DNA from: Balneola sp.
Lineage (GTDB): Bacteria > Bacteroidota > Rhodothermia > Balneolales > Balneolaceae
Length of the DNA stretch: 32,000 nucleotides
Assembly: GCA_965267565.1 (NCBI GenBank)
Contig: OZ254085.1
Span: 368,605 to 400,604 of the forward strand
Reading direction: 5' to 3'
In this document: piece by piece, positions 2-12,663 of the stretch
How positions within the stretch are numbered: the stretch's first letter is position 1
Layout of the letters: every line of letters begins with the position of its first letter
The notes under the pieces: generated by a model
What the model was told of the DNA's origin: nothing
The model's database searches: none
The model's input: only the letters and a program-made list of their open reading frames with translations
Position numbers and translations under genes: made by a program

Positions 2-1225
2 GGAGTGTTCGTATTCTTTTTTGGTGATATAGCAGCTGATTCCCGTTACAATGATCCCCTCCCGGATACACTTGATGTGAGCGGTCAGGAATTTAACGGA
101 ACAGCCGGAGAAGTGGACTTTGGTGTTACCTACACAGCTGATGCTGATACCGGATGGAATCTGGTTGGTAATCCATTTGGTGCTACCATTGATTGGGATG
201 ACTCTCCTAACTGGACTAAAACGAATATTGAATCCACTATTTATATCTGGGATCCGGCTGCTAACGGAGGTAATGGCGAATATTTAACATGGAATGGAGT
301 AACAGGAACATTAGGAAGTGGACTCATCCCTCCTTTTCAGGGATTCTGGATTAAAGCCTCGGCCACAAGTCCGGAGTTGAAAGTTACCACTGATGCAAAA
401 ACGACCGGAGGTTCATTTCTTAGAAAAGAAGTTCAAAGTCAATCTCAATTTGATGAACCAACTTTTGAATTAGAGTTATCTGCAAACGGACTTCAAAAAA
501 CAGCCAGTTTTGTATTTACAGATAACGGGAAAAAAGGAAAAGATCCATTTGATGCCTTTGAATTACTTCCGCTAACCAACAATCGGCTTGAAATCTTTAG
601 CTTGCTTGGCGACAACACCCCACTTGTAATTAATAACCTACCCAGAGAACTTACTAATCGACTTATAATTCCTGTGGGTGTTAATGGGTTTCAAAATGGT
701 TTACCTATAAGTGGCGATTATTTACTTAGAGCTATTAATTTTGATAACATTCCGGATGAATGGCTTATCATTTTAACTGATAACGATACAGGTGAACAAA
801 TTGATTTAAGAATACAGGAAGAATACGATTTCTTCCACACTACTCGAGGAAAGGCAAAAGTTGCAAAACCTAACACTCAAAGAAAAGTAGTGAGTTCGCA
901 ATCATCAAATACGCGCTTTACGCTCAAAATCACTACTGAAGAAATTGAAGCCAACATACCCGAAACTGCTTTTTTATCTCAAAACTACCCAAACCCTTTT
1001 AACCCTGAAACAACCATTCCATTTGGCATTGATGTAGATTCAGATGTTACTCTTGAGGTATTCGATATCCTTGGCAGAAAAGTCAGTACAGTAATTAATC
1101 GTCGGTTAACTGCCGGAACTTATAATATCAATTTCCAAGCTCAGAACTTAGCAAGCGGAGTATACTTCTATAGACTTACTACCGAATCAAAAGTATTCAT
1201 AGAAAAACTTACACTCATAAAGTAA
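2..1225 (+). CDS. secreted protein, 5'-truncated by the window edge, with T9SS (Por) type-A C-terminal sorting domain
   Basis: The reading frame is open to the window start, so the GTG at 5 is unlikely to be the true start. The last ~80 aa (about nt 980-1222) show the T9SS CTD pattern: LSQNYPNPFNPETTIPF ... VTLEVFDILGRKV ... LASGVYFYRLTTES ... KLTLIK. Confidence 0.8.
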   Translation, partial: GVFVFFFGDIAADSRYNDPLPDTLDVSGQEFNGTAGEVDFGVTYTADADTGWNLVGNPFGATIDWDDSPNWTKTNIESTIYIWDPAANGGNGEYLTWNGVTGTLGSGLIPPFQGFWIKASATSPELKVTTDAKTTGGSFLRKEVQSQSQFDEPTFELELSANGLQKTASFVFTDNGKKGKDPFDAFELLPLTNNRLEIFSLLGDNTPLVINNLPRELTNRLIIPVGVNGFQNGLPISGDYLLRAINFDNIPDEWLIILTDNDTGEQIDLRIQEEYDFFHTTRGKAKVAKPNTQRKVVSSQSSNTRFTLKITTEEIEANIPETAFLSQNYPNPFNPETTIPFGIDVDSDVTLEVFDILGRKVSTVINRRLTAGTYNINFQAQNLASGVYFYRLTTESKVFIEKLTLIK

Positions 1226-1309
1226 TTTCGGAAATTTTAAAGCACATTAGAACGTTCTTATTAAAAAGAATTAACTGGTTTTTTTTAATTATATGTGCAA
1301 TCATTAAGT

Positions 1310-1813
1310 ATGAAAAATATAGTCATAGCAATCTTCTTAATAGTATTTTCAAGCCAACATTTATACGGTCAGGAACAGGACATTCAGGTTTCAGGAGATG
1401 TAAGAGTAAATGCAAATGTGGTTTCGAGTATTGATTTGATCACAGTCCAGTCTATGACGTTTGGAAACGTTCAACCTGGTCAACAAGAAATTTATATCAA
1501 TCCTATCAACAGTATTAACGCTGGCTTCATGATAGCGACAGGAAATCCCGAAGCATCTTTCAGATTAACTTATTTACCTGAAATAGTTCTAACCCAAGTA
1601 GATGGTACCTCAACCTTAACTTTCACATACGAAATATCAGGTAATTCTATAGAGAATCAATCTACTTCCGAATTATTAGACACCGATAACAGATCGATTC
1701 AGTTTAGTCTTGAAGGCAGGTACTATTTTTGGATCGGCGGTAGAATAAATATTACAAATGCAGCTCCCGGTAATTATGAAGGAGACTTTACAATAGAGAT
1801 AGACTATATATAA
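1310..1813 (+). CDS. secreted fibre/pilin-like subunit, paralog 1 (DUF4402-like by motif)
   Basis: Signal peptide MKNIVIAIFLIVFSSQHLYG/QE. The start is moved from GTG 1295 to ATG 1310. It shares two motifs with the next three ORFs: N-proximal QSMTFGNV, and the C-terminal YYFWIGGRINITNAAPGNYEGDFTIEIDYI-stop. Confidence 0.65.
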   Translation: MKNIVIAIFLIVFSSQHLYGQEQDIQVSGDVRVNANVVSSIDLITVQSMTFGNVQPGQQEIYINPINSINAGFMIATGNPEASFRLTYLPEIVLTQVDGTSTLTFTYEISGNSIENQSTSELLDTDNRSIQFSLEGRYYFWIGGRINITNAAPGNYEGDFTIEIDYI

Positions 1814-1852
1814 TATCTGCATCATATACCCAATACCAGTTTCGGTAATCTT

Positions 1853-2509
1853 ATGAAAAGCATTTTACTACATATCTTTTCATCTCTAAGAAGCATTAAG
1901 AATTTAAAGTTCATTGCTTCAATCAGTCTTATTTTTTCTGTGATTTCAGGATCAAATAACTCATCATCTTTTGTTTCTGCACAAGAAATCAATTTTGGAC
2001 AATACAGCAGTGCTTACAGCATTACATTATCAGAATTTATTCCTTCTGAGGACCTGGATTTTGGAACATTGATTCAGAATCAAGGACCTGCCTTAATTGA
2101 TTTGGTAAATGCAAAAGTTCTTACCCTTGAAGGTGTTAAATACCTGGATGTAATTGTTGATATCACTGCTGATAATTACTTATTACTGAACGGTGATTTA
2201 GGATGTGAAACAGATCCCACATGCAGAATACCATTTACTTTACAAGCTGCATATGCAAACAGAGGAAATAACAATGTAAATGAGTCCGTAAATATCTCTG
2301 TACTATCCAACGTAGCAACCGCTCAATTCCAAATATTAGAAAGAACCGACGGTCCTCCGGGCCCACCTCCTACTCCGGTCTATGAGGGTTATGATCCAAG
2401 CGTGTTCAATGAAACCGCCTATTTGTATATATATGGATCAGTAAACGTTGGGAATGTTGACGCTGGAAGTTACTCCTCGAGCATATCCGTTACCATAAAT
2501 TATGATTAG
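1853..2509 (+). CDS. secreted fibre/pilin-like subunit, paralog 2 (largest; Cys pair and poly-Pro insert)
   Basis: N-terminal hydrophobic leader ending VSA/QE. Family motifs EDLDFGTLIQNQG and AYLYIYGSVNVGNVDAGSYSSSISVTINYD-stop are present. Extra segments are GCETDPTC and GPPGPPPTP. Confidence 0.6.
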   Translation: MKSILLHIFSSLRSIKNLKFIASISLIFSVISGSNNSSSFVSAQEINFGQYSSAYSITLSEFIPSEDLDFGTLIQNQGPALIDLVNAKVLTLEGVKYLDVIVDITADNYLLLNGDLGCETDPTCRIPFTLQAAYANRGNNNVNESVNISVLSNVATAQFQILERTDGPPGPPPTPVYEGYDPSVFNETAYLYIYGSVNVGNVDAGSYSSSISVTINYD

Positions 2510-3035
2510 GTCAGCCATATTCATATTGATTAGCTCAATGTGGGTATTACTTAATCTGACCCCTGCAAATAGCCAGTTTATCAATCTCAGGCTTAAAATT
2601 GAACCGGAACTTAATGTAACCATTGAACAGTCACTTGATTTCGGTGAAGTTGTTACAAATTCAGGATACACGGAGGTTGAGCTTGGCGATGTAAGAATGG
2701 GGGTTTTTTCAATCAGAGCCTATTACACACAAAATATACAGATTTCAATGTCTGTTCCGGATGAACTTACAAATATTAATCCGGCCATAACTGATGAGAT
2801 TCCTTTGGAATTAGAGGCTTCTTATAATAATTCAGGTGTAAATGATATTAGTAAAGCCGTTCCTCTATCCGATAATCAGGGTATGATTTTAATATATGAA
2901 GGGGAAGAAAACGCTCCTCGACCAAATGATGTTTGGCAGGAAATGTTTTTATATGTGTATGGCGGAATAGATGTAGGGAATATACCAACAGGTACATACA
3001 CAGCAGAGGTAGTTGTGAGTGTTACCTATGAATAG
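2502..3035 (+). CDS. secreted fibre/pilin-like subunit, paralog 3
   Basis: The ATG overlaps the upstream stop by 8 nt, suggesting translational coupling. Leader is MIRSAIFILISSMWVLLNLTPANS/QF. Family motifs are QSLDFGEVVTNSG and MFLYVYGGIDVGNIPTGTYTAEVVVSVTYE-stop. Confidence 0.65.
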   Translation: MIRSAIFILISSMWVLLNLTPANSQFINLRLKIEPELNVTIEQSLDFGEVVTNSGYTEVELGDVRMGVFSIRAYYTQNIQISMSVPDELTNINPAITDEIPLELEASYNNSGVNDISKAVPLSDNQGMILIYEGEENAPRPNDVWQEMFLYVYGGIDVGNIPTGTYTAEVVVSVTYE

Positions 3036-3082
3036 GACTTTTCCTATCAAAACATTAGAAGATCTTCATTAAAACACTCTAA

Positions 3083-3113
3083 TTGGAAACACAGTGTATA
3101 GTCTTTAGCTTTG
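3083..3113 (+). promoter_or_regulatory. candidate Bacteroidota-type promoter (TTG, ~20 nt spacer, TAGCTTTG = TAnnTTTG) for the subunit gene at 3154
   Basis: TTG at 3083-3085 and TAGCTTTG at 3106-3113 lie ~40 nt upstream of the ATG, inside the only long gap (118 nt) of the subunit block. Such octamers occur by chance in AT-rich DNA. Confidence 0.3.
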
Positions 3114-3153
3114 ATTAAAGAAATTCATAAAACTTCATTTAAAATTCAAAATC

Positions 3154-3705
3154 ATGAAAAATCTAAAATACATACTCGCTGCTTTGGTATTTGTTGCTTT
3201 TGCTAACACTACCGCTGTTGCACAGGAAACGCAGGATATTAATACTTCTGCTGTTATCCTTGCTGATATTGCCCTTACTTTCGTTTCTGATGTAAGTTTC
3301 GGTAACATTCAGGACACAGGTTCTCCTGTACTTGACCCTCAAGGTACTAATACTGCTGATGTTGGTGGTGGTGCTACTTTTGGAAAATTCTCTATTTCAG
3401 CTGCTAACTCTACTCAATTAGTTATTGACTGGGATCAGGCCACTGTTACTTTAAGTGATGGAACTAATTCTATGACTTTTACTCCTGATGTTTCAGCTAA
3501 TAGTACTGACGCTATTGCATCATCAAGTGATGTAACTAAAGCTACTGCAAACGCAGCTACAGAAACATCCGGTGCTGGTGCATTGTTTGTTTACGTTGGT
3601 GGGAATTTAGGTACACTTTCAGGTCAGGCAGCAGGTACTTACACTTCTGATAGTGGTACTGCAGGTGCTTCTGGTGATTTAACTTTCACTGTTAATTACC
3701 AGTAA
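3154..3705 (+). CDS. secreted fibre/pilin-like subunit, paralog 4; candidate major subunit
   Basis: Signal peptide MKNLKYILAALVFVAFANTTAVA/QE. The mature part is strongly T/S/A/G-rich. Family motifs are SDVSFGNIQDTG and ALFVYVGGNLGTLSGQAAGTYTS...GDLTFTVNYQ-stop. The ...YQ end resembles the C-termini of the classical chaperone-usher pilins FimA and PapA. The gene has its own upstream gap and a strong terminator directly downstream. Confidence 0.7.
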   Translation: MKNLKYILAALVFVAFANTTAVAQETQDINTSAVILADIALTFVSDVSFGNIQDTGSPVLDPQGTNTADVGGGATFGKFSISAANSTQLVIDWDQATVTLSDGTNSMTFTPDVSANSTDAIASSSDVTKATANAATETSGAGALFVYVGGNLGTLSGQAAGTYTSDSGTAGASGDLTFTVNYQ

Positions 3706-3728
3706 TTAATACTTTGATAGAATTAAAA

Positions 3729-3756
3729 GTCTCGTTTCCAACGGGACTTTTTTTTT
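3729..3756 (+). terminator. rho-independent terminator after the paralog-4 subunit gene
   Basis: GTCTCGT-TTCCA-ACGGGAC forms a 7-bp stem (one G-U pair) followed by a run of 9 T, 24 nt after the stop codon. Confidence 0.75.
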
Positions 3757-3773
3757 ATTAAAACTATCCGAAA

Positions 3774-3781
3774 TAAATTTG
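3774..3781 (+). promoter_or_regulatory. candidate -7 box TAAATTTG (TAnnTTTG) ahead of the chaperone-like gene
   Basis: The octamer matches the Bacteroidota -7 consensus and lies 49 nt upstream of ATG 3830, just after the terminator. No clear -33 TTG partner is present. Confidence 0.25.
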
Positions 3782-3829
3782 GTATTAATTCTTTACTTTA
3801 CTGCAATCATTTACAATAAAAAAGCAGTT

Positions 3830-4663
3830 ATGAAAATAAAAAGGGTTATAACGAGCGGCTTACTTTTGAGTATGATACTATCTGCGAGTCTTTTTTCGCA
3901 GGTGACCATTGCTCCTACAAATTTATTCCTTGATGATAACTCAAGGTTCGGAACATTTATGGTGATTAATAATTCGCAACAACCACAGGAAATCTCTATT
4001 GATTTCTTATTCGGATATTTTGACACCAACGAAAACGGCGACAAAAGTTTTGTCAGAGACAGTTCTGAAATTGAACAACAATATTCAATAGCAAGTAGCG
4101 TGAGGGCATTCCCTCAAAATTTTGTACTGCAAAGTGGCGATCGGCAAATTGTACGTTTGCGAATCAGTGCGCCACAGAATTTAGTTGATCAAACCTACTG
4201 GGCCCGGGTTAGAACTACTTCAACCCCTGAGAGCCCACCTTTAGAACTTGGAGCTTCTGAAACTGTGAATGCTCAAATTGGAGTTAAATTTGAACAAGTA
4301 ACAGGTTTATTCTACAAAGTTGGAGATACAAACACAGGGATAAACATAAATCAGATACGGACAAATTTGATTGATGAAAACACCATTCAAATTTTGTCTG
4401 ATTTTGAACGTACAGGGAATTCTCCCTTTTTGGGCACTGTAACTACTTCAATAATAAAAGATGGAAGAACAATCCGTACCTCTTCCCTTTCAACAAGCTT
4501 TTATTTTAATGGGACACATGGACATACTTTTAATATTGAAGATATGGAGCCCGGAAGTTATGAGATCAAAGTTGAATTTGTATCAGAGCGAAATGACATA
4601 TCAGATTCTGATTTAGTACAAATGACACCTTCAGTTTCAAGTACCACCGTTCAAATACAATAA
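3830..4663 (+). CDS. periplasmic pilus-assembly chaperone-like protein (PapD-like, divergent)
   Basis: The start is moved from TTG 3779 to ATG 3830. Signal peptide is MKIKRVITSGLLLSMILSASLFS/QV. The mature N-terminus VTIAPTNLFLDDNSRFGTFMVINNSQQPQEISIDF and the later segment FPQNFVLQSGDRQIVRLRISAP...QTYWARVRTTS follow the PapD_N strand pattern. Size and position, between the subunits and the large OM protein, also fit. Confidence 0.5.
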   Translation: MKIKRVITSGLLLSMILSASLFSQVTIAPTNLFLDDNSRFGTFMVINNSQQPQEISIDFLFGYFDTNENGDKSFVRDSSEIEQQYSIASSVRAFPQNFVLQSGDRQIVRLRISAPQNLVDQTYWARVRTTSTPESPPLELGASETVNAQIGVKFEQVTGLFYKVGDTNTGININQIRTNLIDENTIQILSDFERTGNSPFLGTVTTSIIKDGRTIRTSSLSTSFYFNGTHGHTFNIEDMEPGSYEIKVEFVSERNDISDSDLVQMTPSVSSTTVQIQ

Positions 4664-4699
4664 ATTTGAAAAAGTGCATACAACATAAAATTTTTATCT

Positions 4700-7684
4700 T
4701 TGAGAGATTGGTTCAAAATAGCAAAAGGATTATGCTTCATTCTCTTGTGTGTACTTCTAACACAGCCTGAAGCTATAGCTCAGAATACTTCTGATGAAAC
4801 TGAAGTATATCTCGAATTCAGGCACCGCGGTATTATTAACTCTGTTATCATCTCTTATTACAAAGATGATATTTTTTTCTTACCCGTTAACGAAATCTTC
4901 GACCTCCTCGATATAGAGAATAACCAGGATGGATTAACGATATCCGGGGATTTTTCATTAGAGCAAACCCCTTACGAAATAAATCTTCAGGATAATTTCA
5001 TAAGGTTTGGAGATAATCGATATCAAATCTCTTCAGAAGATTATTTAATCAAAGAAATAGACTATTACCTTAGACCCGGTTTATTCCTGGAAATATTTGA
5101 GTTAGAGTTCATGGTGGACTTCAGCAACCTTCGCCTGAATTTGGTCACTCAAAAAGAACTCCCGGTTGTCCAAAAAGTATTAAGAAATCAAAAAAGAAGA
5201 GTAGCTGATAATAACAGATTTTCTAACGAGAATTATGATTTAAAGTTTGCCCGCAAAAAACCCTTCATAGATGGAGGATTTGTAGACTATAACCTATCTG
5301 CAAACCTGTCCGATCAGATTAATATTTACAATTATAACAGTAATGTTGGATTACAGCTGTATGGAGGAGATCTTCAGGGTTCATTATTTGGAAGTTTTTC
5401 TGAAAACTTTTCCAATTTTGCTACTAATAATCTCCGCTGGAGAAGGTTTTTCAGGAACCAAAATCTTCTAACTAAGTTAACCATTGGTCAAACCCAAACA
5501 GATGGGGTTAACAGAAGCTCATACACAGGAATTCGTATTTCGAATGAACCTGTTGAGCCTCGTCTTCTGTTTGATGAATTTGAAGTTCAGGGAAGAACTT
5601 TACCCGAATCGGAAGTGGAGTTATATCTCAACAATGCATTGATAGACTTTCAGGTGTCTGATCAGGCTGGAAATTATCGGTTCTTAGCCCCTCTTACTTA
5701 TGGTTCAACACAATTGGATTTAAGAATTTATGGACCAACGGGGCAAATTATTGAAAGATCAAACCGTATTCAGGTTCCTTTTAACTTTCAGCCCGCAGGC
5801 GTTTTCAATTATGTTGCAAATATTGGGGAGCTCGATAATCCATTAATCGGTACAACAGATCGGGTATTAACTGCACAGGGTTCGGGATCATATGGTTTGT
5901 CTGAGTGGCTTACAGCAAAAGCAGGTATTGAATACTACGAGGGTTTTCATACATCAAGACCTACTTTTATTTCTTCTCTGTCGTCCAGAATTCTTACAAA
6001 TTATATTTTTACGCTTGAAGGCGCTACAGACGCTTTTTATCGATCAACTTTGAGCGCTATTTACCCAAATTCTGCAAGTTTTAATATAGATTTTATAGAC
6101 TATTCTTCCGGATTTAGTATTTATAACCCATCTAATGACGACAAAAGATTAAGTACTACTCTATTCTACCCTTTTACTTTTGGTTCAACCCCTTTTAATT
6201 TCAGAGTTTCTGCTTTTTCACGTTTTGGTGAAACATCCAATATTACCACATTCAGAGTGGATGCAAACTCACGTATTGACAAATTTAATTTCAGAGTCGG
6301 TTATACGGATCGCTATTTTGGTGAATTTGATATTTTGTCCCCAACAAGTTTATCGGCCATTGAAAACTCTGTTACTTATACCATTTCAAGAGGAAGAAAC
6401 ATTCCTTCTTATTTAAAGGGTACTTTTCTAAGAGCTCAAATGAGATATTTGCCTGTTCAAAAGGAAATTGAATCAGCTCAGTTTTTTATTTCGCGAAGTA
6501 TTTTCAAAAACGGAAGGTTTCAACTTTCAGTAGGCAGAAACTTCCTCAACCAATTCAGTTCGGTTAGATTTAGTTTCACCATAGATCTAAACAAAGTCAG
6601 ATCGAGCTCCAATTTCAGTTCAATAAGAGATAATTATAATATTACGCAAAACATCCGCGGTTCTGTTGGTTACGATACCAACTACAATAATTTCTTATTT
6701 ACCAGCCGTGAGCAAGTAGGAAGATCCGGCACTGCAGTAAGACTTTTTGTAGACAATAATAACAATGGGACTTTTGAAGAAGATGAAGACGATCCAATAA
6801 GTGAAAATGCTCTTCGGGTTACCAGATCCGGCGCCATGAACCACACAAAAAACGGCATTCTTTACTTCACCCAAATGCAGCCCTACTTCTATTACAACAT
6901 GGAATTAAATAAAGGCGCAATTAGAAATCCAATGTTGGTTCCGGAATTCGAAAACTTTGGATTGATTACTGATCCAAATCGCTTCAAAAAAGTAGAAATC
7001 CCTTTTTATATGTCAGGTGTGGTTGAAGGAACAGTAGAAAGATTATATGAAAATGGAAGACAATCAGGAATAGCAGGATTAAAAGTTTTGATTTCTTCTA
7101 ATGACGGAGACTTTTTGAAAGAAATCCGAACGTTCTCGGACGGTAGTTTTTATTCATTTGAAATACCTCCGGGAGACTATACAATCAGAGTTGATCAGAG
7201 TCAGTTAGAAATATTGGACGCAAAAGTACGCGACAGTCTTCCTACTTTTGAGGTGAGAGCAATTCCAGAAGGGGATTTTATTGAAGGTTTAAATATTGTA
7301 CTTGTTCCTGAAAACTTCGACGATTCGGATCTTGAAGTAGTTCGTGAAACTACCATTCTGGCTGATCTTGAGGGCAGTTCAGAACTACTCAATTTTGAAG
7401 CTGATTTACAGGATAAAGTGGACGAAACTCTACGCTTGATTGTTCAGGCTCAGAACGCCTTTTATAACAAAAATTTAAATCAAGCATTAGATTTTGTTAA
7501 TCAATCTTTGGAAATCTTTGAAACAGCCCAAGGATATGCCTTGAAAGGCAGTTTATTGTACTTAAAGGGTGATAAAGAAGAAGCTCAAAAAAGCTGGAAT
7601 ATGGCAACAAGATTTAATCCAGATATTTATATTCCTGAGGTAGAAACTTTGGACCAAATCATCAAAACAGAACCAGGCGATTAA
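4700..7684 (+). CDS. large outer-membrane protein in the usher position, with C-terminal CarboxypepD_reg-like beta-sandwich and TPR-like tail
   Basis: TTG start (uncertain) and signal peptide GLCFILLCVLLTQPEAIA/QN. The ~700-aa central region is rich in alternating aromatic/polar beta-strand patterns. About nt 7016-7310 encodes GVVEGTVERLYENGRQSGIAGLKVLISSNDGDFLKEIRTFSDGSFYSFEIPPGDYTIRVD. About nt 7429-7623 encodes a TPR-like helical tail. Confidence 0.5.
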   Translation: MRDWFKIAKGLCFILLCVLLTQPEAIAQNTSDETEVYLEFRHRGIINSVIISYYKDDIFFLPVNEIFDLLDIENNQDGLTISGDFSLEQTPYEINLQDNFIRFGDNRYQISSEDYLIKEIDYYLRPGLFLEIFELEFMVDFSNLRLNLVTQKELPVVQKVLRNQKRRVADNNRFSNENYDLKFARKKPFIDGGFVDYNLSANLSDQINIYNYNSNVGLQLYGGDLQGSLFGSFSENFSNFATNNLRWRRFFRNQNLLTKLTIGQTQTDGVNRSSYTGIRISNEPVEPRLLFDEFEVQGRTLPESEVELYLNNALIDFQVSDQAGNYRFLAPLTYGSTQLDLRIYGPTGQIIERSNRIQVPFNFQPAGVFNYVANIGELDNPLIGTTDRVLTAQGSGSYGLSEWLTAKAGIEYYEGFHTSRPTFISSLSSRILTNYIFTLEGATDAFYRSTLSAIYPNSASFNIDFIDYSSGFSIYNPSNDDKRLSTTLFYPFTFGSTPFNFRVSAFSRFGETSNITTFRVDANSRIDKFNFRVGYTDRYFGEFDILSPTSLSAIENSVTYTISRGRNIPSYLKGTFLRAQMRYLPVQKEIESAQFFISRSIFKNGRFQLSVGRNFLNQFSSVRFSFTIDLNKVRSSSNFSSIRDNYNITQNIRGSVGYDTNYNNFLFTSREQVGRSGTAVRLFVDNNNNGTFEEDEDDPISENALRVTRSGAMNHTKNGILYFTQMQPYFYYNMELNKGAIRNPMLVPEFENFGLITDPNRFKKVEIPFYMSGVVEGTVERLYENGRQSGIAGLKVLISSNDGDFLKEIRTFSDGSFYSFEIPPGDYTIRVDQSQLEILDAKVRDSLPTFEVRAIPEGDFIEGLNIVLVPENFDDSDLEVVRETTILADLEGSSELLNFEADLQDKVDETLRLIVQAQNAFYNKNLNQALDFVNQSLEIFETAQGYALKGSLLYLKGDKEEAQKSWNMATRFNPDIYIPEVETLDQIIKTEPGD

Positions 7685-7709
7685 GAAGGCGGCTTTAGCA
7701 CATAGTGCA

Positions 7710-9563
7710 ATGGATAGGTTATATACTTTAATCATTAATAAAATACCTTTTAAGCAATATGTATTAGCTTTCACAGCTATTGTTATGTGTTTTTCAATCG
7801 CTCAGGTTCAGGCACAAACAAGTTCAGGGGCAGGCTTTTCACAATCTGATGATTTACAAATTGCAACCATAGAGCAAAGTTACGATTCTCAGGTTATCCA
7901 GGTAATATCTAATCATTTTGACAGAAAAAAATTCTTTGTTGATGTTAACATCGACGCTGATATTATCCAGGATACCATCACAACTCAAAATCAAATTCTG
8001 ACCTCAAGAAATCAGAACATTGCTCTTCCGGGACTTCCTTTTCTACCGGATGATAACTTGCAGAATGTCGGACCTACAACCGGTAATGAGTCAGCGTTAA
8101 GCCAAAATGTTACCAGAAGGCTTATACTGAATAATATCATAGTAAATATTTATGCTGATACCAGCTTTTCTGTACCTGAACTGGATTTTATGAGGCAAAT
8201 TGCGGGGTTTGCTGCAAAAACAAATCCTGCGAGAGGCGACCAAATTAATATTACTCAGCTTGCTATACCTGATCCTGATTTTGAGCCTATTCCGATCGAA
8301 TCTACTAACATTAATGAACAAGTAGCAGAGCCTGAGACTTTCTTCTCTTCTTTAGGTGATTATATTACTGAATTCATTTTAATAGGCTTGTTTATTTTGT
8401 CTCTCATCGCAAACAGTGTTTTTTACAGAGATAAACAATCAAGTTCTAACCTCCGGCTTGAAAGAGCAAGTTTTAACTTGGAAGGAAATTTCCCGGGAAA
8501 TAACAATCCCTCCGGAGATCCTTTTGCGGGCGAAAGCCGCTCCTTAAATATAACTACTTCATCAGAAGAAGAGTTTTCAATGAAAGAGTTTGATGAATTG
8601 GCTAAAAACTTTTTTACTAAACCCGAAGAAACGGCTCTTCTTTTAGAATACTGGATTGATGAAGATCCGGTAAATGGAGCAACAAAAGCTGCGGAAATTA
8701 TCGCATCGGGGGATTCTACGCTGATCCGTTCCATTAAAAAAGATTTGCCTGAGGAAAAATATGAGGAAATAGTTCAGGCTTTAGAAGAACTATCTCCAAT
8801 GACTATTGAAGAGAAAAACAAAGCAGCTAAATATTTTAATACACTCATTAAAGAAGGTGATAACAAAGAGTCTAAAAAGAAGAATTACGCAAATTTAGGC
8901 CTCTTTAAATTTTTAGAGCATGTTACCAATCACCAGCTTATGGAGCTTCTCAAGAATGAAACAAATCAAACTGCAGCTCTTGTAATTGATTATCTGCCGG
9001 AAGATAAAGCCGCTGAATTGCTGAATAAATTGGATGGCGAAAAAGCTGCTGAGATCATGCTCAAGATGTCAACTTTACACAATCTCACCTATAAACAACA
9101 TAGCTTTATATCGTCCCGACTTTTTGATAAGGTAGTAGAGATCAGAGACGTTGAAAAACAGGAAAAAATGGGAATGGAAAACATCCTCCCAATCCTTGAA
9201 AAGCTACCAGTAAAAGAACAGAAAAAATATATTGAGCAGATTAAAGCATCCGGTTCTGTATTGGGAGAAATGCTTGAGAAACAATTCCTGACAATTGATC
9301 AGATTCCTGATCTTGATAATGAAATAATCAAAGAAGGTGTTGAGGCTTTAAACACTCCTACTCTTTTAGACTCTTTAGTTGGCTTGGATAAAGAAATTAT
9401 AGATAAAATATTGGCTGTACGCCCAAAAAGAGAGCAGAAATTAATACGTATGGAACTTGAAGAAATGGAAGGATCAGATGGTACTGATCAGGCAAAATCT
9501 AAATTGCTAAGCTCTTTAAGAAAATCCTACACCGAACATCTTCAGGAAGAAGTCGTTGAATGA
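7710..9563 (+). CDS. membrane protein with FliF-like periplasmic/TM part fused to FliG-like (N/M/C) cytoplasmic domains
   Basis: There are two hydrophobic segments, aa ~17-35 and aa ~217-239. The periplasmic stretch RRLILNNIIVNIYADTSFSVPELDFMRQIAGFAAKTNPARGDQINITQL resembles the end of the FliF/YscJ ring-building region. On the cytoplasmic side, LLKNETNQTAALVIDYLPEDKAAELLNKLDGEKAAEIMLKMSTL resembles the FliG middle-domain EHPQ region. ILAVRPKREQKLIRMELEEMEG...AKSKLLSSLRK resembles the FliG C-terminal torque-helix region. Confidence 0.55.
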   Translation: MDRLYTLIINKIPFKQYVLAFTAIVMCFSIAQVQAQTSSGAGFSQSDDLQIATIEQSYDSQVIQVISNHFDRKKFFVDVNIDADIIQDTITTQNQILTSRNQNIALPGLPFLPDDNLQNVGPTTGNESALSQNVTRRLILNNIIVNIYADTSFSVPELDFMRQIAGFAAKTNPARGDQINITQLAIPDPDFEPIPIESTNINEQVAEPETFFSSLGDYITEFILIGLFILSLIANSVFYRDKQSSSNLRLERASFNLEGNFPGNNNPSGDPFAGESRSLNITTSSEEEFSMKEFDELAKNFFTKPEETALLLEYWIDEDPVNGATKAAEIIASGDSTLIRSIKKDLPEEKYEEIVQALEELSPMTIEEKNKAAKYFNTLIKEGDNKESKKKNYANLGLFKFLEHVTNHQLMELLKNETNQTAALVIDYLPEDKAAELLNKLDGEKAAEIMLKMSTLHNLTYKQHSFISSRLFDKVVEIRDVEKQEKMGMENILPILEKLPVKEQKKYIEQIKASGSVLGEMLEKQFLTIDQIPDLDNEIIKEGVEALNTPTLLDSLVGLDKEIIDKILAVRPKREQKLIRMELEEMEGSDGTDQAKSKLLSSLRKSYTEHLQEEVVE

Positions 9564-10105
9564 TGGGTTTATCTGGGAAAAACCATATCAAGTATCTTTT
9601 GTATGTAATTGGTATATCACTTTGCATTGAGGTGGGATGTACATCTTCGAATCAGGTTTCAGAAACTCCGCAAGAACAAAATGATACTGCAAATATTGAC
9701 GATGGTTTAAATCAGCAAATCGTTAATGAAAATAATAAAAGATCGGATGAAGCTATTCGCGACTCTTTGAATGCTGTTTTAAAAGACGAAATTCATGCTC
9801 AATATCAGTCGCAGGCTAACCGGCTTACTACATTTTATATATTGGCACAACAACGGTTTTATAGTGGAGATTACCAACAAGCACTTTTTTTGATCAACAG
9901 AGCTGCAAATATTAAAGAGTCCGCTGATGTACTGGCTTTAAGAGGCAGCATTTATTTTGGCTTGGGATCAATTGAAAACTTCGTTTCCAACTGGAGAGAA
10001 GCATTAGAGAAAGACCGGAACGTACCAATACCGCCCTCACCCCCGATCATTGAAGAGCTAAAAAATCAGGGACTAATAAATGAAAATCTTGAACGTAACT
10101 TTTAG
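9560..10105 (+). CDS. TPR-like periplasmic protein (possible lipoprotein)
   Basis: The ATGA overlap with the upstream stop suggests translational coupling. A hydrophobic leader ends in ...IEVGC (Cys27; atypical lipobox). The helical segment FYILAQQRFYSGDYQQALFLINRAANIKESADVLALRGSIYFGLGSIENFVSNWREALEKD is TPR-like and paralogous to the tail of the 994-aa protein. Confidence 0.5.
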   Translation: MMGLSGKNHIKYLLYVIGISLCIEVGCTSSNQVSETPQEQNDTANIDDGLNQQIVNENNKRSDEAIRDSLNAVLKDEIHAQYQSQANRLTTFYILAQQRFYSGDYQQALFLINRAANIKESADVLALRGSIYFGLGSIENFVSNWREALEKDRNVPIPPSPPIIEELKNQGLINENLERNF

Positions 10106-10114
10106 AAATTTTAA

Positions 10115-10912
10115 ATGAAGATTTCATTTTCTAACATCATCAGCTTTTTAGTTTCATTGGGAATCCTTGTGTGGGGTTCTTTGATGGTGATTGGTTTTGC
10201 AGAATACAATGTAATCCCTTCAGACTTTGAGTTCCTTAACCTGCCAAGTTTAGCTATTGTATTCGGAGGAATAACAGCAAGCGTATTTATTAGCTATCCC
10301 TTTCGAAAAGTTGTAAGAGCATTTCGTGAAAGCTTTCGCCTGTTCTCCCAAAGTAATATCGACGATAAACTGCTTGAGCAAGACATTGAAAATATTCTTG
10401 AGTGGCAAAAGATGATTCGAATCGACCGAAACGCTGCTGTAGCGCAGTTAAGTGAGCAATACAGCGGACAATTTGAAGGATATTTGTTTTCGATACTGGA
10501 TACCAATTACTCCACAGAGGAGTTCAGAGAATTAGGTGAAATCAATATTCAGGAAACTTATACTCGGCAACAGCAAATAAATCAGATTATGGTAAGTATG
10601 GGTAAAACCGCACCGGTATTTGGTATGCTGGGAACTTTGTTTGGTCTGATTGTCATCCTTTCCGGTTTTAATGAAGTGGATTCTCTCCTTTCCGGTCTCG
10701 CAGCTGCCTTAATGACCACTTTATATGGGATTTTAATTGGGAATTTCATTTTCACACCAATGGCAAAGAAGATGAATAATATTGCTTCGCTACAGTACTT
10801 CCGGGAAAAAATGATTTTAGAAGGCGTTTTACTGATACAGGAGCAAAAATCTTCTCTTCAAATTTACGACAAGCTTAAAGCTCACATGCATCGAAATGTT
10901 CAACAATTTTAA
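10115..10912 (+). CDS. MotA/PomA-type stator A subunit (MotA/TolQ/ExbB proton-channel family)
   Basis: Four-TM layout with a ~100-aa cytoplasmic loop between TM2 and TM3. TM3 is TAPVFGMLGTLFGLIVIL. TM4, LAAALMTTLYGILIGNFIFTPMAKKM, closely follows the PomA/MotA pattern (ALLTTLYG....N..F.P.A.K). Confidence 0.8.
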   Translation: MKISFSNIISFLVSLGILVWGSLMVIGFAEYNVIPSDFEFLNLPSLAIVFGGITASVFISYPFRKVVRAFRESFRLFSQSNIDDKLLEQDIENILEWQKMIRIDRNAAVAQLSEQYSGQFEGYLFSILDTNYSTEEFRELGEINIQETYTRQQQINQIMVSMGKTAPVFGMLGTLFGLIVILSGFNEVDSLLSGLAAALMTTLYGILIGNFIFTPMAKKMNNIASLQYFREKMILEGVLLIQEQKSSLQIYDKLKAHMHRNVQQF

Positions 10913-10926
10913 GGTACTGCCAAGCT

Positions 10927-12663
10927 TTGAAAGTTGATGATCCATATAATAAAAAACAGTCATTATATCCCGAGCAGGAATTAGAATCTGCTGATGATGA
11001 TAGCTGGCAGGTCAGTTATCTCGATATAATCACTATTATTCTGGGCTTTCTCATTATCCTGCTATCCGTTTCTTCTTTAAAAGAAATAGAAACCTTTTCG
11101 GTATCCGATCTTTTTAAATCATCTGAAAATGAGACGGAGTTCATCACCACTCCAATCGAGCAAATTAAAGAACGTTTAGAGGCACTTCTTGCACAGGAAA
11201 TTGCAGATGGACAATTAGAAATCTATCGGGAGCTCAATGATGTGAAAATTCGCTTCAGAAGTGATGATTTATATCAATCGGGAAGTGCCGAAATTCAACC
11301 CGAAGCAAGTGCTTTGTTAAACCGAGTTCTGGCAGCTTTTAAACTAATCGAGTATGACGATTTTGAAATTGATGTGGAAGGTCACACTGATAACGTTCCT
11401 ATTACTACCGCTGCTTATCCATCCAACTGGGAACTTTCTACCGCTCGTGCCTCCAATGTCGTAAAATATTTCAATGAATCAGGAATTAAAGACGATAGGC
11501 TGAAGGCTTCCGGGTATGCTTCTTCTCGTCCTGTTGTGGAATTCGATGATCGGGGAAACCCTGTGGCTGCTTCAAAAAGTAAAAACAGAAGAATTGTATT
11601 GCGACTGTTTTATTCCAATCCTGATCAGATGTTAGCTGACCAAACAGAAGCAGTAGAAGAAATAACCGAAGAACCTATTGAAACTCCTGAGAATGAGCAG
11701 ATTCTCCCTGAAAATTCGCGGGAAACTGAAGCAGAGGAAGAGCCTCAAAACAACGAGCCAATTGCTCAAATCGAAAATTCCGCTTCACCAGAAGTAGTCG
11801 AGGAAGAAACTCCGGAGTCTGTTAACGAAGTGCAGGAATCTCAGCCTGAGACTATTAAAAGTAATACTTCGACTCCATCCACTCCACCCTCTTCCGGAAA
11901 TGAAGATAATATACAAGGATGCAGATACTCGGTTCAGGTGGGCAGTTATGAATCATTCGCAAACAGTATAAGAGTTGCTAACAGAACGGAAAATCAAACT
12001 TCACGATCTTTCGAAATCGTTTACAACAACTTTCTCTTCTCTGTTCGAAGTAATGCCTTCAATTCACTAACCCGTGCTTACCGTTTTAATGATCAATTTT
12101 CTGATGCCAATGATTCAGAAGAACCTTCTGCAGTTATTTATCAGTGTTATCAACAGGACTATCAGTATCCTAATTCGCTTAATTATGTTATTCAATTAGG
12201 CTTTTTCCAGAACGAACAAAATGCGCTTAATTTTCAACAAACACTTGCAAACGAATATGGTATTGACGCCAAAATTGAGTCATTATCAGTTCAGGCTTAT
12301 ACAGTTTTCGCCGGACCATATTCTGACAGGAAAGAAGCTCAGCAAAAAATTAGTGAGTTTCGTCAAAATGATATTCTGAGCAACGTTTTTCTTAAATATG
12401 ATCCCAAAACTGTTTCTGATTATTCCTACGATTATCAAATAATCGCAGGATCTTATCGAAGTAAAACCAGAGCTTTTCAAATTTCTCAAAGCCTGCAAGA
12501 TCTCCTAAATATTAGTTCTGAAGTGATCACAAAAGAGGATGGAAATTCTTATGTAATTACTCAATCTCAGAATAACTGGGATGATACACTAATAAGACTT
12601 GAGCAGTTGGCAGGAAGTAATCTAAACCTCACTCCTGTTATTTATTTGACCGAGAGGAGTTAA
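10927..12663 (+). CDS. MotB-type stator B subunit (OmpA-like peptidoglycan-binding domain) with acidic linker and three C-terminal SPOR-like repeats
   Basis: TTG start (uncertain). The N-terminus SWQVSYLDIITIILGFLIILL is a MotB-like TM with a conserved Asp. The OmpA-like domain is FRSDDLYQSGSAEI...VEGHTDNVPI...SNWELSTARASNVVKYF...NRRIVLRL. A Glu/Pro/Thr-rich linker spans about nt 11620-11916. SPOR-like repeats begin YSVQVGSYES, YVIQLGFFQNEQNALNFQ...YTVFAGPYSDRKEAQ and YQIIAGSYRSKTRAFQ. Confidence 0.8.
   Translation: MKVDDPYNKKQSLYPEQELESADDDSWQVSYLDIITIILGFLIILLSVSSLKEIETFSVSDLFKSSENETEFITTPIEQIKERLEALLAQEIADGQLEIYRELNDVKIRFRSDDLYQSGSAEIQPEASALLNRVLAAFKLIEYDDFEIDVEGHTDNVPITTAAYPSNWELSTARASNVVKYFNESGIKDDRLKASGYASSRPVVEFDDRGNPVAASKSKNRRIVLRLFYSNPDQMLADQTEAVEEITEEPIETPENEQILPENSRETEAEEEPQNNEPIAQIENSASPEVVEEETPESVNEVQESQPETIKSNTSTPSTPPSSGNEDNIQGCRYSVQVGSYESFANSIRVANRTENQTSRSFEIVYNNFLFSVRSNAFNSLTRAYRFNDQFSDANDSEEPSAVIYQCYQQDYQYPNSLNYVIQLGFFQNEQNALNFQQTLANEYGIDAKIESLSVQAYTVFAGPYSDRKEAQQKISEFRQNDILSNVFLKYDPKTVSDYSYDYQIIAGSYRSKTRAFQISQSLQDLLNISSEVITKEDGNSYVITQSQNNWDDTLIRLEQLAGSNLNLTPVIYLTERS

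Follow-up and report, generated by a model that had tools for sequence, protein, structure and literature searches.

A ten-gene locus encoding fibre and motor proteins

We analyzed a window of 32,000 nt from Balneola sp. (assembly GCA_965267565.1, contig OZ254085.1, positions 368,605 to 400,604 of the forward strand) containing ten genes on the plus strand that all run in the same direction and span positions 1310-12663, or 1295-12663 if an alternative start of the first gene is used. Homologues of the encoded proteins also place the window in Balneola (Balneolaceae). In this order, the ten genes encode four small secreted fibre subunits, a probable periplasmic chaperone, a predicted outer-membrane usher, a fusion of FliF and FliG, a tetratricopeptide repeat (TPR) lipoprotein and a stator of the MotA/MotB type. 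A listing of the open reading frames (ORFs) of the window reproduced the coordinates and the gaps of -8 to 124 nt given for these ten co-directional genes in an original prediction. Sequence comparisons and structure models suggest that the locus encodes a previously undescribed ion-driven surface machine.

The 617-aa protein encoded at positions 7710-9563 is a natural fusion of the RBM3/collar part of FliF to FliG and was named FliFG. It consists of an N-terminal transmembrane (TM) helix, a periplasmic RBM3/collar-like domain (aa 47-183, nt 7848-8258), a second TM helix (aa 211-238) and cytoplasmic FliG N, M and C domains (aa 284-616, nt 8559-9557), which were found together with the charged torque helix by Pfam, a PDB profile and hhalign. 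Pfam matched FliG_N/M/C and MgtE_N within residues 320-590, and an alignment of 30 FliFG homologues matched the PDB profile of FliG with an E-value of 2e-20. In the AlphaFold2 (AF2) model (pLDDT 69), two membrane helices enclose a periplasmic alpha-beta-beta-alpha-beta domain with a long hairpin and are followed by an all-helical FliG. In a Foldseek search with this model, full-length FliG ranked first, followed by about 20 RBM3/collar structures of the FliF MS-ring (E 1.7e-4 to 5e-3) and, with far weaker scores, by PrgK and SpoIIIAG. With hhalign, residues 370-431 of E. coli FliF, which include its RGD motif, aligned to the FliFG family at 1.4e-5, and E. coli FliG at 2.5e-15. The assignment as a FliF(RBM3)-FliG fusion follows from these matches to both proteins, and the FliF/FliG-like membrane protein proposed originally was thus confirmed by fold and by profile.

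RBM1 and RBM2 of FliF are absent from FliFG, as its periplasmic segment of 170 aa is too short for them and contains a single RBM3/collar-like domain. This domain carries an invariant LPGLPxxP loop (nt 8028-8048) and an RGD motif. R281 of FliG corresponds to R574 of FliFG and is kept in at least 90% of a family whose members are only 19-26% identical overall, and the position of D289 is occupied by an acidic residue, E580. The FliM-binding motif EHPQ is changed to ETNQ in the window and to ExxQ across the family, which fits a rotor operating without FliM and FliN.

The gene for the TPR lipoprotein (181 aa, positions 9560-10105) overlaps that for FliFG by 4 nt. The protein has an invariant lipobox cysteine (Cys27), a long acidic low-complexity linker and a two-repeat TPR module recognized by Pfam. 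On the basis of the overlap we propose that the two genes are translationally coupled and that the lipoprotein is stoichiometric with the rotor. After gaps of 9 and 14 nt follow the genes for the MotA/PomA-type stator A subunit (265 aa, positions 10115-10912) and the MotB-type stator B subunit (578 aa, positions 10927-12663). The A subunit matched MotA_ExbB with an E-value of 7e-17. Its matches to the NCBIfam models of MotP, MotA and PomA had E-values of 1e-31 to 1e-27, compared to 0.02 for ExbB and 0.17 for TolQ, and its best PDB matches were flagellar MotA/PomA (3e-24). It is of the four-TM type, retains the proline motifs of TM3 and TM4 and is the most conserved gene product of the locus (65-95% identity). 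Residues 120-132 of its cytoplasmic loop (window positions 10400-10520) form an invariant F-x-G-Y-L-F-S-x-L-D-T-N-Y motif, which has no counterpart in the aligned flagellar MotA/PomA structures and could represent an interface specific to motors of the FliFG family.

The B subunit comprises a plug (MotB_plug), a TM helix with Asp33, an OmpA-like peptidoglycan-binding domain (aa 116-204), a linker and SPOR repeats (aa 332-578, nt 11920-12660), and it also matched the NCBIfam families MotD, MotB and MotS. Because all flagellar NCBIfam models scored below their curated equivalog cut-offs, we regard the stator as a divergent member of the MotA/MotB family. Pfam, NCBIfam and PDB matches thus agreed with the earlier assignment of the last three genes to a TPR protein, a PomA/MotA-type channel and a MotB-type protein. 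None of the ten proteins matched GldL/PorL or GldM/PorM in Pfam and NCBIfam, and no TonB-, TolA- or GldM-like shaft protein is encoded in the locus. In comparisons with the closest loci the rate of synonymous substitutions (dS) was saturated; the ratio dN/dS was therefore not computable for most genes and the rate of nonsynonymous substitutions (dN) was used, which was 0.045 for MotA, 0.19 for FliFG and 0.29 for MotB. Since these values are low against a saturated dS, the motor genes are working genes and not relics, and they are under strong purifying selection.

The gene preceding that for FliFG ends 25 nt upstream of it and encodes a protein of 994 aa. At the sequence level only weak domain matches were obtained, and Pfam Usher was matched by 3 of 29 homologues. 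The AF2 model built from these 29 homologues (pLDDT 80.6) showed an N-terminal domain, a large barrel with an inserted plug-like sandwich, two C-terminal sandwiches and a terminal bundle of TPR helices. In a Foldseek search of the PDB, ranks 1-19 were all FimD/PapC (E 2.6e-29 to 1.9e-9), aligned over 730-937 columns. Judged by its predicted fold, this protein, initially described as an outer-membrane protein in the usher position, is an outer-membrane usher. The usher alignment found nothing relevant among PDB profiles, and hhalign of E. coli FimD against the family profile was negative; these negative results are uninformative because the fold identifies the usher. Its body comprises residues 1 to about 886 (positions 4700-7357), and the helical TPR tail residues from about 887 to 994 (positions 7358-7684). 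The tail is a paralogue of the TPR lipoprotein (28% identity, E 1e-9). The boundary between the fibre and the motor module lies within the usher gene, near residue 886.

The four subunit genes are located at positions 1310-1813 (alternative start 1295), 1853-2509, 2502-3035 and 3154-3705, the third overlapping the second by 8 nt. Subunits 1 and 4 matched DUF4402 (E 1e-7 and 5e-5, respectively), subunits 2 and 3 did so weakly, and across the four groups the domain was matched by 24 of 35 orthologues. According to blastp, subunit 1 is a paralogue of subunit 4 (2e-9) and subunit 2 of subunit 3 (9e-11). All four have a signal peptide, an N-terminal run of alternating hydrophobic residues and a common C-terminal G-x-Y-x-G...Y motif, which in subunit 1 reads G-x-Y-x-G-x-F-T-I-E-I-D-Y-I. 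The N- and C-terminal features fit a donor-strand mechanism. In comparisons of the subunit alignments with PDB profiles, no match to solved pilins was obtained. The presence of four paralogous secreted subunits, as predicted, is supported by the DUF4402 matches, the paralogy and the signal peptides.

Subunit 4 is rich in Ala, Gly, Ser and Thr, shows about 30-38% identity among orthologues and is the product of the fastest-evolving gene of the locus (dN 0.68-0.72, dN/dS 0.6-0.8 in comparison to the closest loci). Its gene is followed by a hairpin resembling an intrinsic terminator (positions 3725-3751, 12-bp stem plus T run), and a hairpin with T run occurs at this position in all ten loci checked, with differing stem sequences. 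A terminator behind the gene of the major subunit is a usual mark of pilus operons. As this terminator or attenuator lies directly 3' of its gene, subunit 4 is probably the abundant major subunit. The conservation of the terminator further indicates that the locus probably forms two transcription units, one with the subunit genes and one reaching from the chaperone gene to motB, so that the division would lie behind the fourth gene and not at the 7684/7710 junction between usher and FliFG genes.

The chaperone candidate of 277 aa is encoded 124 nt downstream of the gene for subunit 4, at positions 3830-4663; a longer ORF starts at 3779, and the start at 3830 agrees with database homologues. 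It has a signal peptide and two immunoglobulin (Ig)-like halves, with Ig-like matches in both halves of its homologues. PapD_N was matched below threshold in 8 of 32 homologues (best value 0.002), some of which are named 'fimbrial biogenesis chaperone', 'molecular chaperone' or 'PapD' by NCBI/JGI. In all loci, including the distant loci L039 (hhalign 5e-48) and L043, the gene is located between the subunit genes and the usher gene. Its alignment matched no PDB profile, and hhalign to E. coli FimC was negative; these failures carry no weight, because the same tests also fail for the usher, whose fold is confirmed. The protein is therefore a probable periplasmic fimbrial chaperone: of the PapD-like chaperone candidate originally put forward, the position, the subthreshold PapD_N matches and the database names stood, and a match to FimC or a PDB profile was not obtained. 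We also considered whether it is a cargo of the type IX secretion system (T9SS). This was rejected: many homologues match Por_Secre_tail, but internally (about residues 196-255 of 276) and below threshold, so that the match is attributable to a shared Ig-like sandwich only.

The absence of other flagellar genes from the window, noted in the original prediction, held across the 32 kb: Pfam and the annotation of the window proteins revealed no gene for FliM/FliN, export gate, rod, hook or filament, and the remaining genes are housekeeping genes. Genes for a type III export gate, rod, hook or filament were likewise found in none of about 40 related loci.

Linkage of fibre and motor genes in related bacteria

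Balneolaceae loci were identified via FliFG. In every one of those located on sufficiently long contigs, comprising 6 from genomes or assemblies and 25 from metagenomes, the full gene set and its order were kept; at least two different downstream flanks occur among them (pdh/alaS or rpoN). The linkage extends to more distant loci. In L037 and L038, whose FliFG is 23-25% identical, the contigs are short and encode a TPR-tailed usher, FliFG and the TPR protein, in L037 also a chaperone homologue further upstream. L039 (FliFG 23% identical) contains chaperone, TPR-tailed usher, FliFG, TPR protein, MotA and MotB, and L043 (FliFG about 24% identical) two chaperones, a DUF4402-like subunit, TPR-tailed usher, FliFG, MotA and MotB. 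Thus, a check of neighbourhood conservation showed that fibre and motor genes are co-conserved, with the order chaperone-usher-FliFG-TPR-MotA-MotB, down to 23-25% FliFG identity. In L037, the genes for chaperone and usher are separated by an insertion of osmolyte-transport genes (BCCT and OpuAC) in the opposite orientation (1341-4291).

The window itself has a mosaic structure, in which the motor genes and the flanks are most similar to L001 and L002 (MotA 95 and 90%, FliFG 74 and 67% identity), and the fibre genes together with the usher barrel to L033 (79-93% identity). Sliding identity along the usher revealed a switch, i.e., a recombination breakpoint, at residues 850-900. The barrel follows L033 (80-92% identity) and is only 30-60% identical to the barrels of L001 and L002, whereas the TPR tail follows L001 and L002 (80-86%) and is only 60-66% identical to the tail of L033. 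The usher tail therefore shares the history of the motor, and these comparisons show that this proposed adaptor is inherited with the motor genes and not with the barrel. The gene upstream of the fibre genes is also closest to L001 and L002, and strains appear to exchange their surface-fibre alleles as a cassette (window positions 1310-7357 versus 7358-12663). No terminator-like site was found in the 25-nt junction between the usher and FliFG genes of the window. The possibility that two unrelated operons merely abut, which had been considered originally, is disfavoured by an adjacency that survives to 23-25% FliFG identity and by an usher carrying a motor-linked TPR tail. The sequence comparisons argue that the two modules are linked by more than adjacency.

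Relatives without the motor genes provide a further comparison. In Gracilimonas (L007, L008) and in the type strain of Balneola vulgaris (L009, GCA_000375465.1), the four subunits, the chaperone and the usher are encoded in the same chromosomal places, and genes for FliFG, TPR protein, MotA and MotB are absent from these fibre loci. The motor-less ushers (1120-1550 aa) are colinear with residues 1-886 of the window usher (62% identity), and their C-termini are colinear with residues 332-577 of the window MotB, i.e., with its SPOR repeats (24% identity, E 5e-16). SPOR thus replaces the TPR tail at the same usher junction, and the TPR tail is missing in precisely those loci that lack the motor. 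Such an arrangement would result if everything between the usher linker and the MotB linker had been deleted. Among the 120 best usher homologues, 77 have the length of TPR-tailed ushers, 36 have the SPOR tail of the motor-less form and 7 are shorter.

In a tree of SPOR tails, the usher-attached and the MotB-attached tails were cleanly separated and reciprocally monophyletic, which points to one ancient event after which both forms were maintained for a long time. These two old groups led us to reject the view that the motor-less form arose by a recent degenerative deletion. In distant usher-linked loci, the usher is TPR-tailed and MotB is short and lacks SPOR, so the most plausible view is that the motor-less form is derived by loss of the motor. 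Its long persistence implies that the motor is dispensable for keeping the fibre genes and presumably also for building the fibre. We infer from the SPOR tails that anchoring to the cell wall matters to the usher system, either directly or, where the motor is present, via an usher joined to a MotB-containing complex. B. vulgaris has been described as flagellated and motile (PMC5167729, citing Urios 2006). Balneola genomes have been reported to lack flagellar assembly genes, and the supplement of the same study lists many true flagellar genes for Aliifodinibius, another member of the Balneolaceae (PMC9909488). The motor described here was rejected as explanation of the flagella and motility of B. 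vulgaris, as the type strain lacks the four motor genes at the locus. The appendages seen by microscopy might be the usher-SPOR fibre (L009 7536-14343).

FliFG belongs to a wider family. A HMMER scan of 1.84 billion representatives gave 650 matches, 169 of them with E ≤ 1e-10 and 46 with E ≤ 1e-30. The listed proteins include more than 100 with a length of 580-750 aa, which are 20-30% identical to the query and cover it from about residue 45 to 605. They hence share the same fusion architecture, and such fusions rank above ordinary FliG proteins of 330 aa. In a deep alignment the strictest conservation was found for a periplasmic LPG[LI]PxxP motif, followed by RGD and a few positions of FliG. 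We distinguish usher-linked loci (type 1) from a second type (L035/L036, L040 and L042), in which FliFG is followed by a conserved protein of 365-378 aa, a TPR lipoprotein, MotA and a short MotB. L035/L036 are assigned to a metagenome-assembled genome of the Fibrobacterota by the name of a MotA cluster mate. The 365-378-aa protein between FliFG and the TPR protein (L035 11722-12858; L040 11851-12969; L042 9232-10329) has no Pfam match and may be an alternative motor partner. Neither usher nor chaperone was detected in type-2 loci by hhalign and Pfam, and these searches thus do not support the idea that a divergent version of either is hidden there. A TPR protein is present in every FliFG locus of either type, and the constant core consists of FliFG, the TPR lipoprotein and MotAB. 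In L043 (5844-8267), the TPR lipoprotein, with TM/lipobox and TPR, is even fused to the C-terminus of FliFG, giving a protein of 807 aa. Two members of the family, one of them that of L043, carry a LysM domain on the periplasmic side of FliFG, just behind the N-terminal membrane helix.

The fibre genes of the window are preceded by the 3' end of a gene for a very large T9SS-secreted surface protein (positions 5-1225, plus strand). As originally claimed, this upstream gene product has a T9SS C-terminal domain (Por_Secre_tail, E 3.7e-11) and the subunits have none. Full-length orthologues of about 2500 aa contain DUF2341, Laminin_G_3, Invasin_D3 and Por_Secre_tail (L004, L007, L009). The giant T9SS protein always precedes the fibre genes, in loci with and without motor, and is thus a conserved upstream neighbour whose membership in the system is uncertain. 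The type-2 locus L042 is likewise flanked by genes for two large T9SS cargo proteins, and a link between FliFG motors and T9SS surface proteins is possible. In many relatives, three to four small genes are located between the giant T9SS gene and the first DUF4402 gene (L004 635-3498; L005 564-3395; L007 400-5776, with a duplicated set; L009 4688-7438). Their products have hydrophobic, pseudopilin-like N-termini, and one contains DUF4900. These genes are absent from the window (positions 1226-1294) and from its closest relatives, L001 and L002. In L006, the subunit 3 and 4 genes are separated by 1.5 kb with short doubtful ORFs only (3999-5521), compared to a usual gap of about 100-200 nt.

A proposed envelope-spanning machine and competing explanations

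In our view, the ten genes most likely encode one envelope-spanning machine in which an ion-driven rotor is docked to the outer-membrane usher, and we assign a probability of about 0.5 to this interpretation. In this machine, the four DUF4402 subunits would leave the cytoplasm via Sec and be bound by the 277-aa chaperone, and the usher would serve for their polymerisation and secretion. FliFG would form a ring in the inner membrane in the manner of FliF RBM3, without FliM/FliN, and stator units of the MotA5B2 type, anchored to the wall by their OmpA-like domain and SPOR repeats, would turn this ring by ion flow. The shared two-repeat TPR module would couple the two parts, one copy being present on the lipoprotein and a second as periplasmic tail of the usher, and these modules may dock on the invariant LPGLPxxP loop atop the rotor collar. 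Ion flow would thereby exert torque or displacement on the usher and the fibre base and lead to a turning or moving fibre instead of a static one. In the motor-less relatives, the fusion of the usher to SPOR would fix it to the cell wall, resulting in a static fibre. Ring formation, rotation, the contact between TPR modules and collar, and the action on the fibre are all inferred. The contrast between a wall-anchored (SPOR) and a rotor-tied (TPR) usher favours, not strongly, a moving or turning fibre over a purely energised gate.

Several observations weigh against this interpretation. A ring, its rotation and a contact between motor and usher are predictions from sequences and modelled folds, and the assignment of the chaperone and the pilin-like fold of the subunits are based on weak sequence similarities. 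No rod-like component is encoded in the locus, so the path by which torque could cross the periplasm to an outer-membrane barrel is not evident, and the alignment of MotA gave no confident equivalents of R90 and E98. In Gracilimonas and B. vulgaris, the fibre genes have been kept for a long time without the motor. Conversely, FliFG-TPR-MotAB occurs without detectable usher in type-2 loci, so that the usher is only one possible partner. The periplasmic LysM would attach the rotor to peptidoglycan, which makes a free continuous rotation less plausible, at least in the two members having it.

In an alternative view, the motor energises the usher itself. Here, ion-motive energy would be transmitted to the usher as a limited, Ton/Tol-like stroke or pull via the TPR tail, which opens the plug, drives secretion, or extends and retracts the fibre. 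A plugged barrel recalling TonB-dependent transporters, TPR connectors linking inner- and outer-membrane parts, the ring fixed to the wall that the LysM-bearing FliFG implies and the missing periplasmic rod all agree with this idea. However, FliFG has a complete FliG with torque-helix residues and is paired with a flagellar-type A subunit, features associated with continuous rotation of a ring, and the motor-less ushers are still under selection, indicating that secretion as such needs no energy of this kind. Of these two readings, both put forward originally, we regard the energised usher as the less likely one.

It is also conceivable that the two modules are independent neighbours, with the motor acting elsewhere, e.g., on T9SS surface proteins or in a polar or septal envelope process, and with the genes kept together by shared regulation, localisation or inherited synteny. 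In favour of this, either module is found in loci lacking the other, recombination affects the fibre module separately from the motor module, genes for large T9SS cargo proteins occur next to both types of loci, and a terminator separates the subunit genes from the rest. On the other hand, usher and FliFG genes are adjacent in four lineages down to 23-25% identity while the flanking genes differ, the usher tail is homologous to the TPR protein of the motor and was inherited and lost with it, and the genes from chaperone to motor follow each other closely without an intervening terminator. Independence of the two modules thus appears quite doubtful.

A use of the locus as a surface-sensing device, in which load on the fibre is passed to the motor and the stator-rotor pair serves as mechanosensor or signal transducer, was also considered. 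Flagellar stators are load-sensitive, and signalling genes adjoin the motor operon in two loci: in L035 (15605-20487) those for CheR and a NIT/hemerythrin chemoreceptor, and in L043 (9755-11928) those for an AraC-type response regulator and a histidine kinase. Since such neighbours are not conserved across the loci and Pfam found no signalling output domain on any of the ten proteins, this function is very unlikely. Finally, that the motor genes are flagellar leftovers, or the ordinary fliG and motAB of the genome located beside a pilus operon, is hardly tenable: the true flagellar genes of Aliifodinibius and the label FliG given to family members by JGI would agree with it, but FliFG is a membrane-anchored FliF-FliG fusion without RBM1/RBM2 and without the EHPQR motif, strong purifying selection acts on the motor genes, the architecture is shared by more than 100 divergent clusters, in the 40 loci seen the motor genes are accompanied by the TPR protein throughout and by flagellar genes in no case, and Balneola genomes reportedly lack flagellar assembly genes, as mentioned above.

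If the interpretation as one envelope-spanning machine is correct, the locus represents a new way to power a surface fibre or a new use for the rotor-stator pair of the flagellum. The FliFG family would provide a natural minimal rotor with one protein instead of FliF, FliG, FliM and FliN. Together with the natural pairs with and without motor (Balneola sp. versus B. vulgaris or Gracilimonas), it makes questions on the minimum needed for torque and on the origin or exaptation of the motor directly testable. A bolder view would be that of a second bacterial rotary organelle, in which a minimal FliF-FliG ring with MotAB, lacking export apparatus, rod, hook and C-ring, spins or drives a chaperone-usher fibre via TPR coupling, as one branch of a widespread family of stand-alone motors that power different outer-membrane partners in Fibrobacterota, Balneolota and related bacteria. 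In that case the rotor-stator pair of the flagellum could function as a free-standing module, with direct consequences for views on the origin or re-use of the flagellar motor; we regard this extension as rather improbable.

Comparison with known systems

Full-text literature searches for DUF4402, non-flagellar FliG, natural FliF-FliG fusions and ushers combined with stators retrieved no description of such a system, in line with the original prediction, which likewise knew of no earlier report. In these searches, DUF4402 appeared in no paper, and FliF-FliG fusions were found only as laboratory constructs. A recent phylogeny of MotAB does not mention stators of the Bacteroidota group or FliG partners of the FliFG kind. 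To our knowledge, no FliG or FliF ring has been described outside the flagellum.

The fibre part resembles chaperone-usher pili in having small secreted subunits, then a chaperone candidate and then an usher, in the terminator behind the major-subunit gene and in an usher with N-terminal domain, plugged barrel and two C-terminal domains. The nearest subclass is presumably the 'archaic' sigma/Csu class with its small beta-rich subunits. In contrast to known pili, the subunits are DUF4402 proteins without sequence match to solved pilins, the chaperone is not recognized by FimC/PDB profile searches, the usher has a TPR tail (SPOR in the motor-less forms), and the genes are linked to those of a motor in the inner membrane. 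The chaperone-usher assemblies known so far do without an energy source in the inner membrane and are the textbook case of an energy-independent assembly at the outer membrane. The linkage to a MotAB-type motor hints at a different situation in this locus, but variants without the motor also occur.

The motor part shares with the flagellar motor the FliG N, M and C domains with equivalents of R281 and the acidic D289, the FliF RBM3/collar with RGD, a PomA/MotP-like A subunit and a MotB with plug, TM aspartate and OmpA-like domain. It differs in that FliF and FliG are one polypeptide lacking RBM1 and RBM2 and having a degenerate EHPQR motif, that MotB carries SPOR repeats, that the constant partner is a TPR lipoprotein, and that genes for FliM/FliN, export, rod, hook and filament are absent from the window and the related loci. 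Laboratory fusions of Salmonella and Vibrio FliF and FliG, which also combine an MS-ring protein and FliG in one chain, are reported to still form rings (PDB 8z4d; PMC11481574). They are engineered or mutant, full-length proteins within a complete flagellum, whereas FliFG is natural, has a far shorter FliF side and is encoded outside a flagellar gene set.

The locus therefore combines features of chaperone-usher pili and of the flagellar motor without fully belonging to either system. The principle of a motor in the inner membrane that is driven by ions and connected through the periplasm to a machine in the outer membrane is also found in ExbBD-TonB, TolQR-Pal, GldLM/PorLM of T9SS gliding and AglRQS-Glt, and TPR proteins act as periplasmic connectors in the Tol (CpoB) and Glt systems. 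The locus differs from these in its A subunit of the flagellar MotA/PomA type and in its FliF/FliG ring components, which occur in none of them. By analogy, it would nevertheless work most like these inner-membrane motors that energise machines in the outer membrane.

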